A stretch of DNA of 10,115 bases from Promethearchaeia archaeon (GTDB lineage: Archaea; Asgardarchaeota; Lokiarchaeia; Sigyniarchaeales; SOKP01). The stretch is taken from contig JAHQWL010000016.1 in the NCBI GenBank assembly GCA_029856155.1, positions 1 to 10,115 on the forward strand, given 5' to 3'. Numbering within the stretch: the stretch's first letter is position 1; each line of letters opens with the position of its first letter. The translations under genes were made by a program, and so were the position numbers. The notes under the pieces were generated by a model. It did not search any database and was not told where the DNA came from. It worked only from the letters and a program-made list of their open reading frames with translations. Positions 500 to 9,648 of this stretch are shown here, piece by piece.

Positions 500-718
500 A
501 ATAAATTCTCACGAAATCCTCAGATTATATCGTTATATCTTGTTGGTCTTGGAAATTCTTTGATAATAAGTTCTTGGATGGCAGTAATTATTGTAATCAT
601 TTCCATAATTTTTTCACATTTTAGAATTTTAGGTGAGGAAAAAAGACTTACTGAACAATACGGTAACTCTTATTTAGAATATAAGAAAAAAGTACCACGA
701 TATTTTTTATTTTTTTAA
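500..718 (+). pseudogene. C-terminal remnant of an isoprenylcysteine carboxyl methyltransferase / PEMT (Ste14-like) membrane methyltransferase
   Basis: Hand translation: KFSRNPQIISLYLVGLGNSLIISSWMAVIIVIISIIFSHFRILGEEKRLTEQYGNSYLEYKKKVPRYFLFF*. It carries the SRNP / EE..L..YG..Y..Y...VPR signature. An in-frame TAA at 497-499 lies immediately upstream and the N-terminal half is absent. Confidence 0.85.
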
Positions 719-731
719 AGAATACATAAAA

Positions 732-947
732 ATGGTGATAAAAATAGAATTTATTCCAAAATTAGAAGTAGGATGGTTTAATGGGGGGATATTTTTAATG
801 ATTCAGGTATTTATACAAGTAAATTTTATATTAATCTGTCCAAAAGAAGTAAAGGTAAGATTATTTGAACAGCGGGGTTGAACTAAAACTCAGATAATTT
901 TTACTGGAATTGGCAAAATTAAAGAAAGACATTGTATTTTATTTTAA
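732..947 (+). pseudogene. N-terminal remnant of a membrane protein, probably a second tandem ICMT/PEMT-family paralog, with an internal nonsense codon
   Basis: Reads MVIKIEFIPKLEVGWFNGGIFLMIQVFIQVNFILICPKEVKVRLFEQRG*TKTQIIFTGIGK..., with TGA at 879-881 (likely from TGG). It has a GGTGA SD. The family assignment rests on recalled resemblance of the P.LE.GW.NG N-terminus and on adjacency. Confidence 0.55.
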
Positions 948-1130
948 TTCATTCCTGAGAATTAATTTCGCAGCATATTCTCCAGATTTATAAACACTAT
1001 TAACCATTGCTCCAGGAAACGTCCATTGTCCTGCTTGATAAAGTCCTTTTATAAATTTTACTTTTTGTTTCCATTGTTTCATCTCATCCCAACCCAAACT
1101 TGCCCCTTTTTGGTTTAATGTATAACGATG
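939..1130 (-). pseudogene. C-terminal remnant of a phytoene desaturase-like FAD-dependent oxidoreductase (COG1233 type)
   Basis: Hand translation: HRYTLNQKGASLGWDEMKQWKQKVKFIKGLYQAGQWTFPGAMVNSVYKSGEYAAKLILRNELK*. It matches the RYTxNxxGAxxGW ... GLYxAGxWTxPGxG...SG..AA signature. An in-frame TGA at 1152-1154 lies upstream and the N-terminal part is missing. Confidence 0.85.
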
Positions 1131-1425: not shown

Positions 1426-3426
1426 TCATCTATCATGATCTGCGGGACAATTGTCCAGACTCCAGTAAATTAATGGTACATCAGCTAGAAAACACCCTTT
1501 CAGTAATTTTGGCAACAAAAAAAGAATGGAATCGAATGTGGGCCCCCTTACTTTAATTCTATAAGGATATTGTCCCCCATCGCTTACCACATGAAAACAT
1601 AGCTCTCCTCTAGCACTTTCGACAAAAGATATTGCTTCTCCTTTTTGAATTTGATCCATGGGGCTAAATTCCACTTTAATAGGACCACCAGGTAACTTAT
1701 TCATACTTTCTTCTATTAAATTTAAGCTTTTTTCGATTTCTAGTCGTCTTACAAAAACTCTATGGTATACATCTCCATCGTTAAATATTGGCACATCGAA
1801 ATGAAGTTTGTCGTAGGCTGCATATGGAGTTGCTTTTCTCACATCAAATTTTACACCTGATGCCCTAATGTTGGGACCAGTAATATCAGATTCTATTGCA
1901 ATATCACGAGATATTTCCCCTAAATTGATAGCTCTTTTTCTGAAAACTAAATTATCCATAAAGAGGTCATCAAGAATTTTAAGTCTATTTTTTATATATG
2001 ATATTACATTCGGAGCATTTTTTTTAAATTCATCTGAGACATCACACCTCACCCCTCCTGGAATATTATATATTTGATAAATACGACCTCCACATAACGC
2101 CTCAAGGAGGAAAAGTATTTTTTCTCTATCCCCCCATACAAGCCTCGCTACTGTATCAAATCCACTACTATAAGCAACGAGCCCTAAATTAATTAAATGA
2201 CTTTGAATCCTTGATAATTCTGCCTGAATTACTCGTAGATACTTTGCTCTATCTGGAATTTCAAGTTCTAATAATTTCTCTAAGGCATTAACATATCCTA
2301 TTTCATATGATGCTCCATCTAACACACAAATACGTGATATAAGCATTATGTTTTGATACCACGTTCTATATTCAAAGAGTTTTTCAAGTCCTCTGTGGAG
2401 ATACCCCACAATACATACAGCATTGTATATTGTTTCTCCCTTAATATTTAATCTTAGCGAAAAATTACCTGATGCTGGATGTTGAGGGCCAAATGAAAGT
2501 ATCCTCTCATCGGTTCTAACTTTCTTTATGATTGGTTCTACTTTTAAATCATCTGTATTTCTATATTGAATCTTCTTCTTCGTTCTAACTTTTATTTCCC
2601 TCGGCTTATATCCACCTTCGATAGCTAGTATTGCATGGTAGGCAGCAACACCTATTGATTCTGGTCTAGTCGGACATCCAGCGATCCATATATCCACAGG
2701 GATATAATCATCAATCTTTTTTATGGTATTGTAACTATCCCAATATGTTCCTCCTGTCATAGGACAGTTTCCAAGAACCAACACAAATTTAGGTTGAGGC
2801 ATCGCTTTATATATACTAATTATCCTCTTTAATGTTTTATAAGTCACATAGCCCCCTATAAGAAGTACATCCGAATGTAACGGGCTTCCTTTTACAATCA
2901 TCCCAAATCTTTCCATATCAAATCCACTACCAACCCATGGTATTGCTTCTATGAAACAGCATCCAACAAAATAATTTGTTATCCATAAGCTCCTTGAACG
3001 CGCCCAACTTACAATACTTTTCCTCTTTGGTTTTTTAGGATGTTGTAACACTGGTTGTTGAGCCAACATTTCAGGTGTGAAAATTAAATCTTTTTTATTT
3101 GTCGAAATCATTATGGAAAAATTTGTTGTATCAAGAGCTTTTGTAGGACATAAATCGAGACATAGCCCGCAAAAACAACACTTTGAATAATCAATACTTG
3201 GATAATAGACAATTCTTCCATCTTTTTGTCGTTCTACCATATTAATCGCTTTATTAGGACAGATTCTAAAACAAATCCCACAAGATGTACATTTTTCTGG
3301 ATGAAAGATATGCCGTCCCCTAAATTTCTTTGAGATTGGTGACTCTGGAGGAAATTTGAATGTAATCGGTTTTTTTATAAATAGTTTTATCCCTGTTTTC
3401 AATATATTAAATGCTCTCTTAATCAT
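1426..3426 (-). CDS. Fused NuoI-NuoB-NuoD (MbxN-MbxJ-MbxL-like) peripheral arm of a complex I-like / MBS-like oxidoreductase
   Basis: aa 1-~125 form a NuoI-type 2x[4Fe-4S] domain (FRGRH, CTSCGICFRICP, CCFCGLCLDLCP). aa ~137-270 are NuoB-type (SWARSRSLW, GCCFIE, DMERFG, GNCPMTGG, VDIWIAGCPTRPE). aa ~305-666 are NuoD/large-subunit type (FGPQHP, GYLHRGLEK, RICVLD, ELSRIQSHL, GPNIRASG, VESARGE, PYRIKVRGP, SLDNCPADHDR). The frame is continuous and the start overlaps the nuoC stop (ATGA). Confidence 0.95.
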   Translation of the reverse strand: MIKRAFNILKTGIKLFIKKPITFKFPPESPISKKFRGRHIFHPEKCTSCGICFRICPNKAINMVERQKDGRIVYYPSIDYSKCCFCGLCLDLCPTKALDTTNFSIMISTNKKDLIFTPEMLAQQPVLQHPKKPKRKSIVSWARSRSLWITNYFVGCCFIEAIPWVGSGFDMERFGMIVKGSPLHSDVLLIGGYVTYKTLKRIISIYKAMPQPKFVLVLGNCPMTGGTYWDSYNTIKKIDDYIPVDIWIAGCPTRPESIGVAAYHAILAIEGGYKPREIKVRTKKKIQYRNTDDLKVEPIIKKVRTDERILSFGPQHPASGNFSLRLNIKGETIYNAVCIVGYLHRGLEKLFEYRTWYQNIMLISRICVLDGASYEIGYVNALEKLLELEIPDRAKYLRVIQAELSRIQSHLINLGLVAYSSGFDTVARLVWGDREKILFLLEALCGGRIYQIYNIPGGVRCDVSDEFKKNAPNVISYIKNRLKILDDLFMDNLVFRKRAINLGEISRDIAIESDITGPNIRASGVKFDVRKATPYAAYDKLHFDVPIFNDGDVYHRVFVRRLEIEKSLNLIEESMNKLPGGPIKVEFSPMDQIQKGEAISFVESARGELCFHVVSDGGQYPYRIKVRGPTFDSILFLLPKLLKGCFLADVPLIYWSLDNCPADHDR

Positions 3427-3917
3427 TTTCCATCATCTCTTTTAAACTCTGGCATCATTATGTTGAAATTCCTTTTGACATATTTCCTCCAATCAAAATC
3501 CTTTCTAAAGGGAGGTGGACCTATCCAATTTTCTAAGAACAATGGTTTTAACATTTTATTACCCTCAAAGATAATACCGAACATTTCCCATACCTCTCTT
3601 TCGTGCAACGCAGCATTCGGCCATAACTTGGATAAGCTTTCAATTTTTACATTCTTTCTTCGTGGAATACGTGTGGAAACTTTAATATAGATATTCTTGT
3701 TCATAATATGTAAGATAAAAAATATCTCAAATGAATCATCTTTTATCCAGTCCACCGCACTTAAAGTTAATAATCTTCGGAACCCATGGTCTTTGAGGTA
3801 TTTTGCGATATTGAGATAATCCTTTTTCCTAATTTTAAAAAAAAAGATATTTTTATCTTCCATATATTCTAATGAATCCTCTTTAAGTTGTTTTAAAAAA
3901 CTAATTCCTTCAGACAT
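3423..3917 (-). CDS. nuoC: Complex I 30 kDa subunit (NuoC / MbxK-like)
   Basis: Motifs TLSAVDW, LWPNAALHEREVWEMFGIIFEGN and PPFRKDF. A GAGGTG Shine-Dalgarno sequence lies upstream of the ATG. Confidence 0.93.
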   Translation of the reverse strand: MSEGISFLKQLKEDSLEYMEDKNIFFFKIRKKDYLNIAKYLKDHGFRRLLTLSAVDWIKDDSFEIFFILHIMNKNIYIKVSTRIPRRKNVKIESLSKLWPNAALHEREVWEMFGIIFEGNKMLKPLFLENWIGPPPFRKDFDWRKYVKRNFNIMMPEFKRDDGK

Positions 3918-3931
3918 ATAAAATTAACACC

Positions 3932-5440
3932 TCAACTATAAACAGATAAGAAAGAATCTACACATTTACAAATAATACCCCAAATGAATAACGACATAAT
4001 GGATACTAGTAGCATTATAATGAAAAGTGTTACCTCGGACGCTAATATCGTATTGTTTTTTTCTAAGGCATTATGAACTTCTTCTGAAATCTGATTTTCG
4101 GGAACAATGACTATGTTTTTTACTAAAACACCATAATAATAGCCTATAGAAATCACAGTGTTCACTACGATTATAATTGCGAGCATAATCCCCATCCAAC
4201 CAACTTGTTGTGATGATCCAATTGCAGCTTCTATCAGAAATAGCTTACTCCAAAACATAGCTAATGGTGGAAATGCTGCTAAGTAAAATGCGCTTAGGGC
4301 AAATATCATCCCTGCAACTTTCATTTTAGTTCCGATCCCCATCAACTTCTTTATTTCCCTTGTTTTCCCCTCTTTTATAAATGATCCCGCACAAATAAAC
4401 ATGGTCGCCTTTGATATTCCATGATTTAGAATATGAAATATTGTTGCTGCTAGTGCGAAAGGAGTACCTATCGCTATACCTACCATCATCAAACCTATAT
4501 TATAGACACTGGAATAGGCTAGCATTCTTTTTATATCTTCTTGTACTAGTGCAGTTAAATTTGGAATTGTTATAGTTAACGCAGATATTATAAGCAAAAA
4601 GATTACCATTATATTGTCAAAAGATAATAAAATCTCGTTATAAAAGATAGAGACTAATACTTTTATTAATGCGAACATTTCTATTTCAATAACAATTCCC
4701 GAAAGCATTGCACTTACTCCAGATGGAGCTGCTGAATGTGCGTCCGGCAACCATGTGTGGAGTGGAAAGATTGCTGCCTTCACACCAAATCCAAGTACGA
4801 ACATGATAAAAAGGAAATAATAAATGGTAAGGGGTTGATCATTTAATGCACTATTTAATTCTGTCAAATTAGTAGTGCCTGCGATGATGTAGACAAATGA
4901 TAGTGCAAACAACACTAAAGCAGCACCAATTGAGCCCATTATGATATACTTAAATGACGATTCAATAGATTCCTTATTTCTGTAAAAAGCAACTAGAATA
5001 TAAGCGGTAATTGCGAGAAATTCAGTAAACACAAAAAGGGTTATAAGATCACCCGAATATGCTACACCATTTAGTGCCGATATCATTAACAAAAGCAGAA
5101 AATAATATTCTGTTATTCGTTTTTCCTCTAAATAACCAATACTGTAAAGAGATATTATCGTCCCTAGAATGGAGGAAAAAAGTGATATTAATGCAGAAAG
5201 ACCATCAATTGCAATAATCGTTCCTCCAGTATGAAAATCGAGAAGAATTGGAGTAGTCAATGACTCAATAAGATTGCATAAGGAAAAGAACACAACTAGA
5301 AATAAACCACCTGTGCTGATAGCTCCTAATATTGCTTTATTTTCCCGACACTTTCCGGTTATTAAAACTATAATAGCTGTAATTAGTGGTATAATTATGG
5401 GAAATAGATACTTACTTATTAAAAATACTAATTCTGACAT
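3932..5440 (-). CDS. Antiporter-like proton-translocating subunit (MrpD/MbhH / NuoM-N family)
   Basis: 502 aa, highly hydrophobic. Motifs GDLITLFVFTE (TM5 Glu140), ESSFKY, GVKAAIFPLHTWLPDAH (TM7 Lys221), DIKRMLAYSS, FHILNHGISK and PPLAMFWSK (TM12 Lys399). It mixes M-like and N-like motifs, as MrpD/MbhH does. Confidence 0.92.
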   Translation of the reverse strand: MSELVFLISKYLFPIIIPLITAIIVLITGKCRENKAILGAISTGGLFLVVFFSLCNLIESLTTPILLDFHTGGTIIAIDGLSALISLFSSILGTIISLYSIGYLEEKRITEYYFLLLLMISALNGVAYSGDLITLFVFTEFLAITAYILVAFYRNKESIESSFKYIIMGSIGAALVLFALSFVYIIAGTTNLTELNSALNDQPLTIYYFLFIMFVLGFGVKAAIFPLHTWLPDAHSAAPSGVSAMLSGIVIEIEMFALIKVLVSIFYNEILLSFDNIMVIFLLIISALTITIPNLTALVQEDIKRMLAYSSVYNIGLMMVGIAIGTPFALAATIFHILNHGISKATMFICAGSFIKEGKTREIKKLMGIGTKMKVAGMIFALSAFYLAAFPPLAMFWSKLFLIEAAIGSSQQVGWMGIMLAIIIVVNTVISIGYYYGVLVKNIVIVPENQISEEVHNALEKNNTILASEVTLFIIMLLVSIMSLFIWGIICKCVDSFLSVYS

Positions 5441-5441
5441 A

Positions 5442-7526
5442 TTAACTCAGCTTCACCAACGCATATATAATAACAAGGGATAAAAATATACTGATAACAT
5501 AATAAAGCAAATTTAAATTTATCTTTCCAGTGTGGAATTTTCTTATATAATCACCACTCTTTCTAACACTATACGCAAGCCTGCAATAAAATTTATCAAT
5601 TGATTGATGAAAGTTTTTTGTGGCATTTCCTAATTTAGTAATCCTTTGGCCAATACCGTGATAAAGCTTATCAATTGATTGATGGAAGTTTTTTGTGGCA
5701 TTTCCTAATTTAAAAATCCCTTGGTAGAATGAATAATAAAGAGGATTAAAGATCACTCGCTTATTTAACAATTTATGTATATCCTTTATGAGATATTTTG
5801 ATGTTATAGCACGAGTAGAGATTTTTCTTGTGAAATAGAAAGGATAGGTTATTAATAAGCCCGTTATAAGTAATATAACAATTATATAAGTACCAATAGA
5901 CAACCATGTATTAGAAAGGAAATAAAATAGTTTATCAAATGAGATCTCCAGTGGAATACTTCTAGATATAAAATTAATAATAGTAGGGTAAAAAAAGATT
6001 AATCCAAAAGATAAAGTGGCTAAAATAATTAGAGGAACTGTCATTATGGAGGTAGGCTTGTGTATTTTTTCCATTGTCTCGATTTTTTTAATTTTCTCAC
6101 TCTCGGTCCCAAAAAATATAAGCCCAATCATTCTAAATATATATAGGTTAGTTAGGAGAAATGTCACGATAAATAGAATAGTAATCCATGCAGGGAGAAC
6201 AAATATTTCGTTAACTATAAGTTGAATGCTGAAATATCCCACCAATGGAGGGATTCCAACAATCGAAAATGCTCCTATCATCATTAAGATATAAGTCTTT
6301 TTCATATATTTTCTAAGAGAGCCCATTTCATAGACATTTTTGATACCTGTTGAGTGTATTATTAAGCCAGAACTTAAAAAAAGAAGCGATTTAAATATGC
6401 TATGTGCGAGGATAAAAAGAACACCTGCAACAAATGCTGAATAATTAAGATAGAGACCTGCAACACCGAATATAAAGAATATGTATCCCAACTGATTTGA
6501 AGTCGAAAAAGCAAGAATTTTCTCTAGATCCCTCGCTACTATTCCATAAACACCAGTCAATATAATAGTTATTAGTCCGCATATAATCGCAATTTCAAAT
6601 ATTAATGAGAGCTCAGAAGCAGCCGATAAAGAATATAAGTCATAATTTATTAAAAAGAGCCTGCCAAGTATATAAACACCTGCATTTATTGTAGTCGCGG
6701 AATGCATTAATGTGGAAGCAGTTATAGGCCCAACTGTCGACTCAGGAAGCCAATCATGAAATGGGAACTGAGCACTTATTGCGAGAGAACTTGAAATTAT
6801 CAATATTGAAAATAGAGGAAGGATTCCAGCATTTAAAAGTTTAGTTACCCAACAATTATCTTTACTAAGAGTCAAAAAATTTAAAGTAGGATGACCAAAA
6901 GAATTCATAGTAGCGAATTCGAGTAAAATAATTGCAACCTCCATAAAGCAACCAGCGATAAGTATAGTTATTAGTGCCTTAGTTCCACAGTGTCTATTAT
7001 ATTTTCCATCAGTATCAAAACTAGGAACCGGACTTGGGTTTGTTTTTTTATACCAGAATGAGATTAGTCCCCAATTACAAAGACTGACCATTAGAAATGC
7101 TAATAGCATTTCAATAAAATTATTCGATAATACCAAAAGAAACATAGAACCTAATGAGAAATTCATCCAGAACCAATATCGCCCTAAATCGATTTCTTCA
7201 CGCATGTATCCCAAGCTATAGACAAAAATCAAAATTGAAATAAATGCGATAATAATTATTATAAATACACTAAACTCATCAATTAATATACCAAATTCTA
7301 CATAAGCTACTCCAAAACCGTAAAATAAATTGAATGTGTCTTGGTGGGGGAGAGATAGTGGAAATGAGATCATATCATATAAAATTTTTAAAGATAAAAG
7401 AAAACACATAATTGAAATACCTAACGAAAAATATCCGGCGTATGACTTATTCCTCTTCGCAATCCCATATGCTATAAAGGAACCAATTAATGGAATTAAC
7501 CATATAGCCCAAACTTCTATATATAT
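5442..7526 (-). CDS. nuoL: NuoL/MrpA-family antiporter-like subunit with degenerate pumping residues and an extended lateral helix; start probably ATA at 7526 (the track calls ATG at 7409)
   Basis: Motifs FVYSLGYM, SAQFPFHDWLP, MHSAT, KILAFST..QLG, HSIFKSLLFL, GIPPLVGYFS and FHTG followed by a terminal TM helix. The frame stays open upstream of 7409 to 7529 and reads IYIEVWAIWLIPLIGSFIAYGIAKRNKSYAGYFSLGISI, a typical NuoL TM1 plus start of TM2. The family is secure; the exact start is less so. Confidence 0.88.
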   Translation of the reverse strand: MYIEVWAIWLIPLIGSFIAYGIAKRNKSYAGYFSLGISIMCFLLSLKILYDMISFPLSLPHQDTFNLFYGFGVAYVEFGILIDEFSVFIIIIIAFISILIFVYSLGYMREEIDLGRYWFWMNFSLGSMFLLVLSNNFIEMLLAFLMVSLCNWGLISFWYKKTNPSPVPSFDTDGKYNRHCGTKALITILIAGCFMEVAIILLEFATMNSFGHPTLNFLTLSKDNCWVTKLLNAGILPLFSILIISSSLAISAQFPFHDWLPESTVGPITASTLMHSATTINAGVYILGRLFLINYDLYSLSAASELSLIFEIAIICGLITIILTGVYGIVARDLEKILAFSTSNQLGYIFFIFGVAGLYLNYSAFVAGVLFILAHSIFKSLLFLSSGLIIHSTGIKNVYEMGSLRKYMKKTYILMMIGAFSIVGIPPLVGYFSIQLIVNEIFVLPAWITILFIVTFLLTNLYIFRMIGLIFFGTESEKIKKIETMEKIHKPTSIMTVPLIILATLSFGLIFFYPTIINFISRSIPLEISFDKLFYFLSNTWLSIGTYIIVILLITGLLITYPFYFTRKISTRAITSKYLIKDIHKLLNKRVIFNPLYYSFYQGIFKLGNATKNFHQSIDKLYHGIGQRITKLGNATKNFHQSIDKFYCRLAYSVRKSGDYIRKFHTGKINLNLLYYVISIFLSLVIIYALVKLS
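5586..5724. repeat. 75-bp-period tandem duplication inside nuoL (lateral helix)
   Basis: The 45-bp cores at 5593-5637 and 5668-5712 differ at one base, and the similarity extends into the flanks. Both encode KLGNATKNFHQSIDK. Confidence 0.97.
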
Positions 7527-7529
7527 CTC

Positions 7530-7856
7530 TTACCACCTAAGCTCACTAATTTTTTCAGCATCAAGTGTATTGAATTTTTCTTGCATCATATAAACAATAA
7601 TAAGAACAAACGCAGCAACAATTGCTGCTATTATTGTCGAGATCATAACGATTGTTACAACAAATGGATCTAAATTATTGCTTGCAAAATATACAGAAAA
7701 AAAGACTAGAAATGCATTTGCAGTGTTTATTAAAATCTCCACGCCTATTATTATCTTGATTACATTTTTACTAGTAGCAGCTATTACCAAGCTTATGAAA
7801 AATTCTGTCAATATTAAAAAAAATGTAAGTATTATTATATCAATCATTTTTATCAC
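7530..7856 (-). CDS. nuoK: NuoK/MrpC-family small membrane subunit
   Basis: Three hydrophobic segments, KNVIKIIIGVEILIN (conserved Glu), an MrpC-like LDP before TM3 and a C-terminal TLDAEKISELRW. The start is either GTG at 7856 (overlapping the upstream stop) or ATG at 7847, which follows AAGTGA-taaaa. Confidence 0.88.
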   Translation of the reverse strand: MIKMIDIIILTFFLILTEFFISLVIAATSKNVIKIIIGVEILINTANAFLVFFSVYFASNNLDPFVVTIVMISTIIAAIVAAFVLIIVYMMQEKFNTLDAEKISELRW

Positions 7857-8107
7857 TTCCCACCATTGGATCTCCTAATTTGTGTCGAAATACCTGCATA
7901 TACGCTGAGTAAAATAAAAGCTATTATGATCATCTCGAGCCCCCTATATTCCCAGATAAATTTTCCTATTAATGTATCAAATGCTTTATCATCCTCACCT
8001 TTTAAAATATCACTTGTGTTTTCTACATAATTGCTTTGAATATTCTCAAATTCAATGGCATAAGAAACAATAATTGTTACCATTAAGAACAATAACACAC
8101 ATGACAA
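7853..8107 (-). CDS. NuoJ C-terminal half (J2 / MbhE-like) small membrane subunit
   Basis: Two hydrophobic segments, the motif IGKFIWEYRGLEMIIIAFILL, and its position between J1 and K. The track start is TTG; the frame is open upstream to ATA codons at 8125/8128 behind GGAGG. Confidence 0.75.
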   Translation of the reverse strand: MSCVLLFLMVTIIVSYAIEFENIQSNYVENTSDILKGEDDKAFDTLIGKFIWEYRGLEMIIIAFILLSVYAGISTQIRRSNGGK

Positions 8108-8111
8108 TAAT

Positions 8112-8366
8112 TTACTCTTCTTTATTATCTTCCCCTCCTATTAAACATACTATATAAAAAAATAGAGTCGCCATCGAAGCAGAGTATAGCGTTATCTGAA
8201 ATATGCCCAAGAGAGTATAACCCAAAAAAATATAAATTATTCCTATTAAGATATTGAATACTGTAAAAAAAATAGCAGCGTACATTAATTTCTCTACAAA
8301 ATAGATTATTAATGTGATTAATATTACTAAAATAAATAATGACAGAGGAATAATAAGAATATTCAT
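8112..8366 (-). CDS. NuoJ N-terminal half (J1 / MbhD-like)
   Basis: Three TM segments. LGYTLLGIFQITLYSASMATLFFYIV matches the NuoJ TM3 pattern Q..VYAGA..VLF. The SD GGAGTGA lies 6 nt before the ATG. Confidence 0.82.
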   Translation of the reverse strand: MNILIIPLSLFILVILITLIIYFVEKLMYAAIFFTVFNILIGIIYIFLGYTLLGIFQITLYSASMATLFFYIVCLIGGEDNKEE

Positions 8367-8372
8367 ATTGAA

Positions 8373-9347
8373 TCACTCCAAACCAAATATAATGATTGTA
8401 ATTAAATTAAACATTGCCAATGGAATAATTACTTTCCAGAAATAGTTAATTACTTGATCAATGCGATATCTTGCAGTAATGCTCCTTATCATTGTTATTA
8501 TAAAGACAATTAATGATGTCTTGAGAAAGAACATTATAAAATTTAAAGTCTGATTAAGAAATAATAACTCAGGATAGTTAAAATAAGGGAATGTTGGACC
8601 ACCTAGGAAAAGGATGGCTCCAAGAGATGCCACAAAATACATATTAAGATCCGAAGAAAGTCTGAATAAGGCTAATGTTCTCCCACTGATTTCTGTTGAC
8701 CATCCTGCTACGATTTCTGACTCAGCATTTGGAGAATCAAATGGGACTTTTTCTATTTTTGCTATGCTACTAAATATATATGCAATAAAACTTAAAGGCA
8801 TGAATGATATAAGGGGAATACCCGATGATTGAAATAACAAACTTTCTTTTATAGTAAAAGATTTGGATATGGCAATAATAGTTGCTATTGATATTCCGAA
8901 AGGAATTTCGAAGGAAATTATCATCTCTGCCTTTCTTGCTGCACCTTCATTTGAATATAGGCAAGCAACAGAATAACCAGTTATTATAATTAAAAGATCT
9001 ATAAACACACCGATCCCGAATAATAAAACTAAATCACCACTAAACGAAAGTGGTGCATTAAAATCATAAATTGGAATAAAAAGTAGTATAAAAAACATTA
9101 GTGCGACTGATGATATTGCAGAGAATGTTATCAAAAAAGTATTACTTACTTTTGGAAATATACTCTCCTTGTTTAATAATTTAATAAAGTCCGCCAAGGG
9201 TTGCATTATTCCTTTGAAACCGGTCATTTGAGGCCCTATTCTATTTTGAAAACGTGCATATACCTTCCTATCAAACCACTCATAAAAAAGGGAGAATATA
9301 AACGATAGAAGAACCCATATCAATATCATAGCGATTTTAATCATCAT
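8373..9347 (-). CDS. nuoH: Complex I subunit 1 family (NuoH / MbxM-like)
   Basis: Motifs DRKVYARFQNRIGP, QPLADFIKLLNKE, ISFEIP, PFDSPNAESEIVAGW and RYRIDQ. Confidence 0.95.
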   Translation of the reverse strand: MMIKIAMILIWVLLSFIFSLFYEWFDRKVYARFQNRIGPQMTGFKGIMQPLADFIKLLNKESIFPKVSNTFLITFSAISSVALMFFILLFIPIYDFNAPLSFSGDLVLLFGIGVFIDLLIIITGYSVACLYSNEGAARKAEMIISFEIPFGISIATIIAISKSFTIKESLLFQSSGIPLISFMPLSFIAYIFSSIAKIEKVPFDSPNAESEIVAGWSTEISGRTLALFRLSSDLNMYFVASLGAILFLGGPTFPYFNYPELLFLNQTLNFIMFFLKTSLIVFIITMIRSITARYRIDQVINYFWKVIIPLAMFNLITIIIFGLE

Positions 9348-9648
9348 TCACTCTCTCTTTTTCCTTGGGAATAAAAAATAAAGAGAATGTGATCAAAATC
9401 AAGAAACTTAAAGTTATAATATTTAGTGAAAGAGAGGTAATTGCAACAAGAACTACTGCGGCATCAAATGCGATAAAAAGACTGGCATAATATATCCATG
9501 GGACTTGATATTTCACCTTATGTTCTATTAATCTTTCTCCACAATGATAGGTGTCACTATATCTTCGTTTTTTGCTTCCTAATAAATAAATTATAAATGC
9601 AACAAGGTATACGATAAGTAGTGATACTAGAAGTTCAATTATGATCAT
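9337..9648 (-). CDS. nuoA: NuoA-family membrane subunit
   Basis: Three TM segments, loop motif YHCGE (canonical FECG) and YYASLFIAFD. It is the first gene of the operon and overlaps the nuoH start. Confidence 0.85.
   Translation of the reverse strand: MIIIELLVSLLIVYLVAFIIYLLGSKKRRYSDTYHCGERLIEHKVKYQVPWIYYASLFIAFDAAVVLVAITSLSLNIITLSFLILITFSLFFIPKEKERVNDD

Follow-up and report, generated by a model that had tools for sequence, protein, structure and literature searches.

The lateral helix (HL) of a NuoL-like subunit encoded by a Loki-type Asgard archaeon, Promethearchaeia archaeon, is built from three tandem 25-residue repeats, which would be long enough for three antiporter-like partner subunits although the genome encodes only one. 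Relatives retain this strap, with its two membrane anchors, even after deletion of the rest of the protein, and thus the strap rather than the pump is the part of NuoL that selection preserves. The window, the whole 10,115-nucleotide stretch analysed (contig JAHQWL010000016.1), encodes a nine-gene complex-I-like operon on the minus strand with the following features:

5442-7526 (minus): nuoL-like gene, 694 codons if it starts at the ATA at 7524-7526 or 655 codons from the first ATG at 7409; a PF00361 + PF00662 core followed by TM15, the lateral helix and TM16
5832-5897 (minus): TM15, first membrane anchor of the strap (predicted helix 544-565 of the 694-residue form)
5751-5831 (minus): linker that runs over the L core before the repeats begin (predicted short helices 571-589)
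5676-5750 (minus): lateral-helix unit 1, starting FNPLYY
5601-5675 (minus): lateral-helix unit 2, starting IDKLY, with a core near-identical to that of unit 1
5526-5600 (minus): lateral-helix unit 3, starting IDKFY and ending FHTG
5586-5724 (no strand assigned): 75-bp tandem DNA repeat
5448-5522 (minus): TM16, second membrane anchor (predicted helix 669-693), with the motif G-K-I-N-x-N-L-L-Y
7092-7094 (minus): Leu codon where homologs have the TM5 Glu (AWEM becomes AFLM)
6777-6779 (minus): Ile codon where homologs have the TM7 Lys (GKSAQ becomes AISAQ)
6225-6227 (minus): Ile codon where homologs have the TM12 Lys (FSKD becomes FSIQ)
3932-5440 (minus): the single MrpD/NuoM/N-like partner gene (502 residues)
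7530-9648 (minus): nuoA (9337-9648), nuoH (8373-9347), split nuoJ (8112-8366 and 7853-8107) and nuoK (7530-7856)
1426-3917 (minus): nuoC (3423-3917) and the fused nuoI-B-D gene (1426-3426)

The repeat noticed in the sequence-only reading is confirmed. Tandem Repeats Finder (TRF) detects a 75-bp period at 5586-5724 with 1.9 copies, 90% matches and a score of 236, and the minus strand of 5526-5750 translates to exactly 75 residues from FNPLYY to FHTG, against 49 residues from FDWLY541 to ENG589 in E. coli NuoL, so that the earlier figure of about 50 was right. The three units share D/N2, K3, Y5, K14, G16, F22 and H23, while the core common to units 1 and 2 is identical at 44 of 45 nucleotides. 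The hydrophobic moment is coherent over the whole HL, with z values of 4.6-8.5 against shuffled sequences. In contrast, the proposal that the duplication is recent is not supported. Orthologous units are more alike (72/75 nucleotides) than paralogous ones (57/75) and the duplication therefore predates the species splits, the identical core reflecting gene conversion. An assembly artefact is extremely unlikely, although the window is a short (10-kb) metagenomic contig and this judgement rests on assemblies alone. The three-unit layout, with lineage-specific substitutions, is assembled independently in the relatives G018 (on a 77-kb contig), G141, P0005 (contigs from two sequencing runs), P0007 and P0245 (here and below, G and P numbers denote relatives, G000 being the genome of the window), and the two copies differ at 18 of 75 positions, so they cannot be collapsed or expanded by a simple assembler error.

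The NuoL-like protein displays the Proton_antipo_M core (PF00361, 111 bits) and the Proton_antipo_N domain (PF00662, 38.9 bits), both above their cut-offs, but it falls below the curated NuoL cut-offs of NF005141 and TIGR01974 (295.5 bits against 556, and 291.8 against 407.5). The 39 codons upstream of the first ATG are open and conserved, and G018 has ATG where the window has ATA. An AF2 model (pLDDT 89) contains the C-terminal TM15, lateral helix and TM16, and its full-length Foldseek matches are NuoL, NdhF, ND5 and MrpA (E 1e-25 to 1e-28 to NuoL/NdhF/ND5). Confidence in the HL and TM16 of the full-length model is, however, only 47-75, with a low-confidence break predicted at the GNAT of unit 2. 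Of the proton-channel residues of complex I antiporter-like subunits, namely the TM5 Glu and the TM7, TM8 and TM12 Lys, only the TM8 Lys is kept, as the others are replaced by Leu, Ile and Ile, respectively. The TM7 change is shared only with P0005. Thus, the suggestion in the sequence-only reading that this NuoL is inactive is consistent with the loss of channel residues, whereas the 502-residue partner retains the TM5 Glu and the TM7, TM8 and TM12 Lys.

The 4.1-Mb, 97%-complete genome of the window contains only two PF00361 genes, both within the window. Similarly, profile searches of the other near-complete genomes (97-100% complete for the four together) recovered only L and one partner gene in G018 and G141, and a single PF00361 gene in G046. 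Orphan nuoM/N genes, the alternative source of partners raised in the sequence-only reading, are thereby excluded in these four genomes. Other Mrp/Mbh membrane modules that might fill the slots were also absent from G000, where MnhB (PF04039) and MbhD (PF13244) returned nothing and the only NuoK/MnhC-type gene is that of the window. A rule of one unit per partner holds in the three cases in which it could be calibrated: a Njordarchaeales-type operon (P0027) combines a 26-residue HL with one partner gene, E. coli combines 49 residues with nuoM and nuoN, and an archaeal operon (P0030) combines 79 residues with three PF00361 partner genes. This agrees with reports that HL length scales with the number of antiporter-like subunits (PMC8165549) and that a 26-residue HL insertion accompanies the extra NuoM (PMC9040806). 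The clade of the window breaks the rule, as it displays 2-4 units with a single MrpD-like gene, and unit number varies from 1 to 4 among relatives that all carry one partner gene. The gene order is the same in all the homologous operons.

The strap survives loss of the pump. In G046 the L protein is 369 residues long, has no PF00361 core and carries 4 units, while thirteen clusters of 116-181-residue proteins consist only of TM15, units and TM16, one of them lying between nuoK and the partner gene in an otherwise intact operon. The strap-only operon L024:4475-8506 comprises A, H, J1, J2, K, a 141-residue strap and a 501-residue partner. In a tree of the partner gene (mafft and FastTree) the two losses are independent. 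TM15, which aligns with the N-terminal helix of the strap-only proteins, the units and TM16 always remain, and in the strap-only forms the linker over the lost core is about 16 residues shorter while the three units are kept. In the Loki-type clade 17 of 21 sequences have 3 units, and the exceptions sit at tips next to three-unit sisters, with 2 units in P0008 and P0257 and 4 in G046 and P0247. The last unit and TM16 are nearly invariant across full-length, truncated and strap-only forms. AF2 models the strap-only protein as one continuous 86-residue helix between two TM helices. A structure search with this model returned only generic long helices (Z 6.2 at most), and its superposition on straight 87-residue helices at 2.4-2.9 Å served solely to judge that the modelled helix is straight. 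Pfam assigned no family to the strap or to the strap-only proteins, and a profile search of 1.84 billion representative sequences with the strap alignment found strong hits only inside this clade, a few weak hits resembling C-terminal pieces of other NuoL proteins, possibly from cut genes.

The analysis establishes that the array is real, is shared by at least six lineages, changes by gain or loss of whole units, is homogenised by gene conversion, forms one coherent amphipathic helix and is the part of NuoL that selection keeps. It is inferred that the strap works as in complex I, as a clamp of set length lying on the cytoplasmic membrane surface, with TM16 docking where it docks in one-unit relatives and a rod of roughly 110 Å holding in place whatever lies between the two anchors. 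A length-specific clamp is considered somewhat more likely than not. E. coli mutagenesis shows that the helix is a clamp and that loss of TM16 destabilises the complex (PMC3274701). This view rests on sequence and predicted structure rather than on an experimental structure or stoichiometry, and the 2- and 4-unit variants indicate that length is not strictly fixed. In addition, dN/dS of the units (0.32-0.67) is higher than that of the L core (0.21-0.33), although on too few sites to separate the hypotheses, and gene conversion alone could keep internal units alike without any function.

The interpretation offered in the sequence-only reading, a molecular ruler recruiting several copies of the single MrpD-like protein, is partly supported: a helix about one unit longer than the canonical NuoL lateral helix, the match of one unit to one antiporter slot, the single partner gene and the loss of channel residues in NuoL hold, but recruitment of several copies is not demonstrated and is regarded as a tentative variant of the clamp. 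In this view three like units would dock three copies head to tail (two or four in variants), with NuoK/J as the proximal cap and the dead L core, or TM15 alone in strap-only relatives, as the distal cap. The extra copies would replace the pumping lost in L, whose core would have become redundant, which would explain why it is inactive here and deleted in relatives, and pump stoichiometry could change by one unequal crossover in a 75-bp repeat. This is consistent with the calibration cases, with the absence of other PF00361 genes, with the dispensable L core and with the intact channel residues of the partner. The internal units also keep D/N2, Y5, G16, F22 and H23 of the ancestral single unit that lies on the partner and are homogeneous, unlike the divergent units of the operon with three partner genes, and the TM16 motif is the same as in one-unit relatives, suggesting the same docking site. 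However, the homogeneity follows from gene conversion alone, no homo-oligomeric array of antiporter-like subunits is known or described in the papers searched, and the 2- and 4-unit variants would mean that stoichiometry changes between near-identical relatives. Two- and three-unit straps also occur in relatives whose L keeps its channel residues and whose large subunit matches the [NiFe]-hydrogenase family (P0010, P0011, P0017), where, by a rough estimate, ferredoxin-to-proton electron transfer could hardly drive four or five pump modules. A complex prediction with two copies of the partner (residues 1-500, own alignment) gave a score of 0.00 without controls and counts neither for nor against binding.

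An equally tentative alternative is tolerated slack, in which TM16 docks beside the single partner as in one-unit relatives and the extra one to three units, products of a repeat-prone sequence, lie on the membrane surface or loop out with no role tied to their length, the strap being kept after loss of the core only because TM16, and perhaps the last unit, is needed for assembly. Unit number changed in at least three sublineages while gene content stayed the same, and the close pairs P0007/P0008, P0011/P0017, P0009/P0010 and P0254/P0257 differ by exactly one unit with almost the same TM16. The far better conservation of the last unit and TM16 than of units 1-2, the raised dN/dS and the predicted break in unit 2 point in the same direction. 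Moreover, Ca. Manganitrophaceae carry HL insertions in complexes without extra subunit genes (PMC9040806), so an over-long HL need not be filled, and E. coli tolerates flexible inserts of 6-7 residues at some HL sites (PMC3274701). In contrast, three units remain the mode on both sides of the deepest split of the clade, where partner proteins are only 65-68% identical, although the array is visibly mutable. TM15 and all the units, not just TM16, survived two independent deletions after which the linker but not the units was shortened, and polar and aromatic positions are conserved in every unit in a coherent amphipathic phase. Less likely is a second variant of the clamp in which the units span the partner, the NuoK/J/A bundle and then NuoH, so that TM16 anchors near the junction with the peripheral arm and ties the lone pump module to the base. 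Three slots of about 37 Å would, by an estimate from published complex I dimensions, add up to roughly that length, and this variant would explain why the strap is needed without the L core and why three is the preferred number. TM16 and its entry motif are, however, the same in 1-, 2-, 3- and 4-unit forms and resemble the QTG..Q/N.Y motif found across NuoL proteins, arguing for one common docking surface rather than three, and a fixed arm does not explain the 2- and 4-unit variants. Some other clamp geometry is a remote possibility.

Among described systems, the strap occupies the same C-terminal position and displays the same fold, NPxYY/FDWLY entry and QTG/ENG exit motifs and amphipathic character as the TM15-HL-TM16 element of NuoL/ND5 in respiratory complex I, from which it differs in its length, its near-identical tandem units, its single partner gene instead of two and the decayed L core. 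It shares an extra stretch of about 26 residues with the HL of the '2M' complex I of Nitrospira and with the HL insertions of Ca. Manganitrophaceae (Chadwick et al. 2018, as summarised in PMC9040806), although its units are homogenised repeats and, with no second nuoM-like gene in the four near-complete genomes and a partner count of one rather than two, the excess is two slots. P0030, with 79 residues and three partner genes, represents an archaeal operon of the 2M kind and served as a positive control for the partner-gene count. The operon type (A, H, split J, K, L, one M-like gene and B/C/D/I without E/F/G) is that of the complex-I-like group 4 [NiFe]-hydrogenases of Asgard archaea with a short membrane arm, for which an HL on the L-like subunit with two antiporter-like subunits is reported (PMC11291895; bioRxiv 10.1101/2024.07.04.601786), and the nearest named homologs are Njordarchaeales and Promethearchaeota proteins. 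The enzyme of the window differs in its fused I-B-D subunit, which carries only two of the four [NiFe] cysteines, one at each site (RICVLD and DNCPAD), with a weak PF00374 match of 19.4 bits against a cut-off of 25.8, whereas Njord-type homologs do carry PF00374. Neither paper, in the parts consulted, reports variation in unit number, decay of L or strap-only proteins. The strap-only relatives resemble MbhI of the Pyrococcus membrane-bound hydrogenase (PMC8165549) in being small proteins of TM helices plus a lateral helix in a complex with one antiporter-like subunit. They arose, however, by deletion of the L core within this clade, are not homologs of MbhI by any test applied here, and carry a helix about three slots long whereas the MBH helix spans one.

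The lateral helix of complex I has long been debated as a piston or a clamp, and its length follows the number of pump subunits. This clade provides a natural experiment in which the pump carrying the helix is dying or already gone, yet the helix and its anchors are kept at about three slots, indicating that the strap has a function of its own. The strap-only operon is also the smallest system in which to address the question by structure prediction or cryo-EM. If the slots do not hold copies of one subunit, the enzyme shows that an over-long strap can be accommodated, which would caution against inferring subunit number from helix length, as is done for 2M-type complexes. If they do, pump number in this enzyme family could be tuned by repeat number, and the complex would be a living model of the homo-oligomeric ancestor usually assumed for NuoL/M/N.

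The 10,115-bp contig belongs to a 4.1-Mb, 97%-complete assembly, and the nearest named homologs of its proteins are from Promethearchaeota and Njordarchaeales. The window is filled by one minus-strand operon comprising nuoA, nuoH, a split nuoJ, nuoK, a nuoL-like gene, a single partner gene, nuoC and a fused nuoI-B-D gene, while nuoE/F/G are absent. The features relevant to the description below are:

7853-8366, minus strand: nuoJ, split into two genes of 84 aa each, a split conserved in all Asgard operons of this type
7524-7532, minus strand: nuoK stop codon TAA, in frame with nuoL, followed two codons later by an ATA codon of nuoL
5442-7409, minus strand: NuoL-like gene (L), counted from the first ATG
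5526-5750, minus strand: three 25-aa units of the lateral helix (HL) of L
5586-5724: 75-bp tandem repeat
3932-5440, minus strand: MrpD/NuoM/N-like partner gene (502 aa)
1426-3426, minus strand: fused NuoI-NuoB-NuoD protein (666 aa)
560-718, plus strand, and 939-1097, minus strand: short frames downstream of the operon

This operon type is published as the complex-I-like group 4 hydrogenase of Asgard archaea with a shortened membrane arm (PMC11291895; bioRxiv 10.1101/2024.07.04.601786). The NuoI-B-D fusion is conserved in the Loki-type relatives (658–667 aa) and its two [NiFe] ligand motifs read RICVLD and DNCPAD, with one Cys each, suggesting that the enzyme is probably neither a hydrogenase nor a canonical quinone reductase. 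Only 4 of 161 genomes of the class carry the operon and these are spread over three genera. Comparison of the whole window with the corresponding contigs of the genomes G141 and G018 reveals that G141, from another genus, has a partner protein almost identical to that of the window and a strap (TM15, HL and TM16) 93% identical, which points to lateral transfer or to mis-binning of this 10-kb contig. The 1.4 kb downstream of the operon (23% G+C) holds only short frames that look like C-terminal scraps of a methyltransferase-like membrane protein and of an FAD-oxidoreductase-like protein, and these may be gene remnants.

Tandem Repeats Finder (TRF) reports a 75-bp period at 5586-5724 (1.9 copies, 90% matches). 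At the protein level, 5526-5750 encodes exactly 75 aa between the FNPLYY and FHTG motifs, which divide into three 25-aa units with conserved D/N2, K3, Y5, K14, G16, F22 and H23. Units 1 and 2 share a 45-nt core with one mismatch. In contrast, E. coli NuoL displays 49 aa from FDWLY541 to ENG589. Thus, the sequence-only reading, which had described a helix of three 25-aa units against about 50 aa in E. coli, is correct in every detail that was checked.

The distance between the two motifs is quantised among homologs, with 25–26 aa in most Asgard L + one-partner operons, 50 or 75 aa in some Asgard operons, 54 aa in Nitrosopumilaceae-type proteins, about 53 aa in bacteria and 79–80 aa in a few archaea. 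Three cases calibrate a rule of one unit per partner: a Njordarchaeales-type operon with 26 aa has one partner gene, E. coli with 49 aa has nuoM and nuoN, and the archaeal operon of the homologous protein P0030 with 79 aa has three PF00361 partner genes around L, while P0031 looks alike. This agrees with the literature, in which HL length follows the number of antiporter-like subunits (PMC8165549) and 2M-type complexes carry a 26-aa insertion (PMC9040806).

The clade of the window breaks this rule, since all operons of the Asgard L + one-partner clade that could be read have a single partner gene, whatever the number of units. P0017, with 2 units, is left out of this count because its contig ends inside the gene after L.

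Lateral-helix units in Asgard operons with a single partner gene, named by homologous protein.
P0027: 1 unit
P0008: 2 units
P0010: 2 units
P0011: 3 units
P0005: 3 units

Genome-wide, the assembly of the window (G000), G018 and G141 (97–98% complete) hold only L and one partner, while the related genome G046 (100% complete) holds only the partner. In addition, G000 lacks Mrp/Mbh small-subunit genes outside the window. Partners encoded elsewhere, the alternative raised by the sequence-only reading, are therefore excluded in these genomes.

The duplication, which had been read as recent from the sequence alone, is not recent, as orthologous units are more alike than paralogous ones. Unit 1 of the window matches unit 1 of P0005 at 72/75 nt while it matches unit 2 of the window at 57/75 nt. 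The three units are shared by the window, G141, P0005, G018/P0006, P0007, P0245 and the strap-only proteins described below. The identical core reflects gene conversion: position 19 is Met (ATG) in units 1 and 2 of all other lineages but Thr (ACA, two base changes) in both units of the window and P0005, and the Gln/Leu at position 24 behaves likewise. A tree of the L core places the 25-aa state at the base of the clade with expansions in three sublineages, and several close pairs differ by exactly one unit. In the strap-only protein P0256 the last unit, rather than an internal one, has been duplicated, while P0265, a bacterial-type 145-aa piece, carries a perfect internal repeat FDL(R/K)VIDGIVNGV. 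Tandem duplication of HL units therefore also occurs outside this clade.

NuoL is decaying but the strap is retained. In the window, L displays Leu in place of the TM5 Glu, Ile in place of the TM7 Lys and Ile in place of the TM12 Lys, whereas the partner keeps all of these residues. The ATG start of L found in G018 is ATA in the window and in P0005, and the 39 codons upstream of the first ATG are open and encode a conserved TM1. In G046 the L gene (locus L050, 3201-4310, on contig C9) encodes a 369-aa remnant that aligns to residues 1–209 and 552–691 of the window's protein, such that TM helices 6/7 to 14 are deleted. The remnant has no Pfam match and carries four units, the rest of the operon is intact up to the contig end and the genome has one PF00361 gene. 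Similarly, in the contig of P0130 (NCBI GCA_030592305.1) a gene of 141–155 aa, consisting only of a TM15-like helix, three units and TM16, lies between nuoK and the partner gene in an otherwise intact operon. Such strap-only proteins of 116–181 aa (locus L024, 6532-6999, and proteins P0244, P0247–P0257 and P0260) have no Pfam match and form thirteen clusters with two, three (eleven of them) or four units. On the partner-gene tree the strap-only clade is sister to the rest while G046 is nested among full-length forms, and so the core was lost twice. In the strap-only proteins the linker that used to cross the L core is about 16 aa shorter but the units remain, and the last unit and TM16 are nearly invariant in all forms. 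Overall, 17 of 21 sequences of the clade have three units.

The whole HL displays one coherent hydrophobic face (z 4.6–8.5 against shuffles). AF2 models L well overall (pLDDT 89), but the HL and TM16 only at 47–75, with a predicted break at the GNAT of unit 2. In contrast, the strap-only protein is modelled as a TM helix, one continuous 86-residue helix and a second TM helix (pLDDT 66–84), and the predicted long helix superposes on straight 87-residue helices at 2.4–2.9 Å. Seventy-five residues of helix correspond to about 110 Å, or three slots of about 37 Å.

The proposal of the sequence-only reading, that the helix is a ruler holding three copies of the one partner, is possible but not shown. 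It is favoured by the calibration rule, by the homogeneous units that keep the features of the ancestral partner-contacting unit, by the unchanged TM16 docking motif and by the redundancy of the L core. However, no precedent is known, variants with 2 and 4 units exist, and gene conversion alone explains the homogeneity of the units. In addition, 2–3 units occur in relatives whose L keeps its channel residues and whose large subunit matches the hydrogenase family, where four or five pump modules seem, by our own estimate, energetically excessive. A brace reaching over NuoK/J/A to NuoH would fit the preferred number of three but not the constant TM16. Pure slack fits the variation and the published tolerance of inserts, but neither the long conservation of three units nor the retention of TM15 and all units after loss of the core. 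On balance a length-specific clamp is favoured with moderate confidence. Within it the ruler remains only a tentative possibility, the full-arm brace is less likely and another geometry is improbable. Slack is about as possible as the ruler, while other explanations or artefact retain little weight.

The finding is real and is more than had been read from the sequence alone. The array differs from the known lateral helix, whose length follows partner number in the calibration cases, in carrying three units beside a single partner gene, and the unusual possibility that these hold three copies of one subunit remains open. The occupants of the two extra slots are a matter of inference, whereas the data show that the strap is a selected element in its own right and that its length is conserved although it is mutable, which fits the clamp role established in E. 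coli, where loss of TM16 destabilises the complex (PMC3274701).
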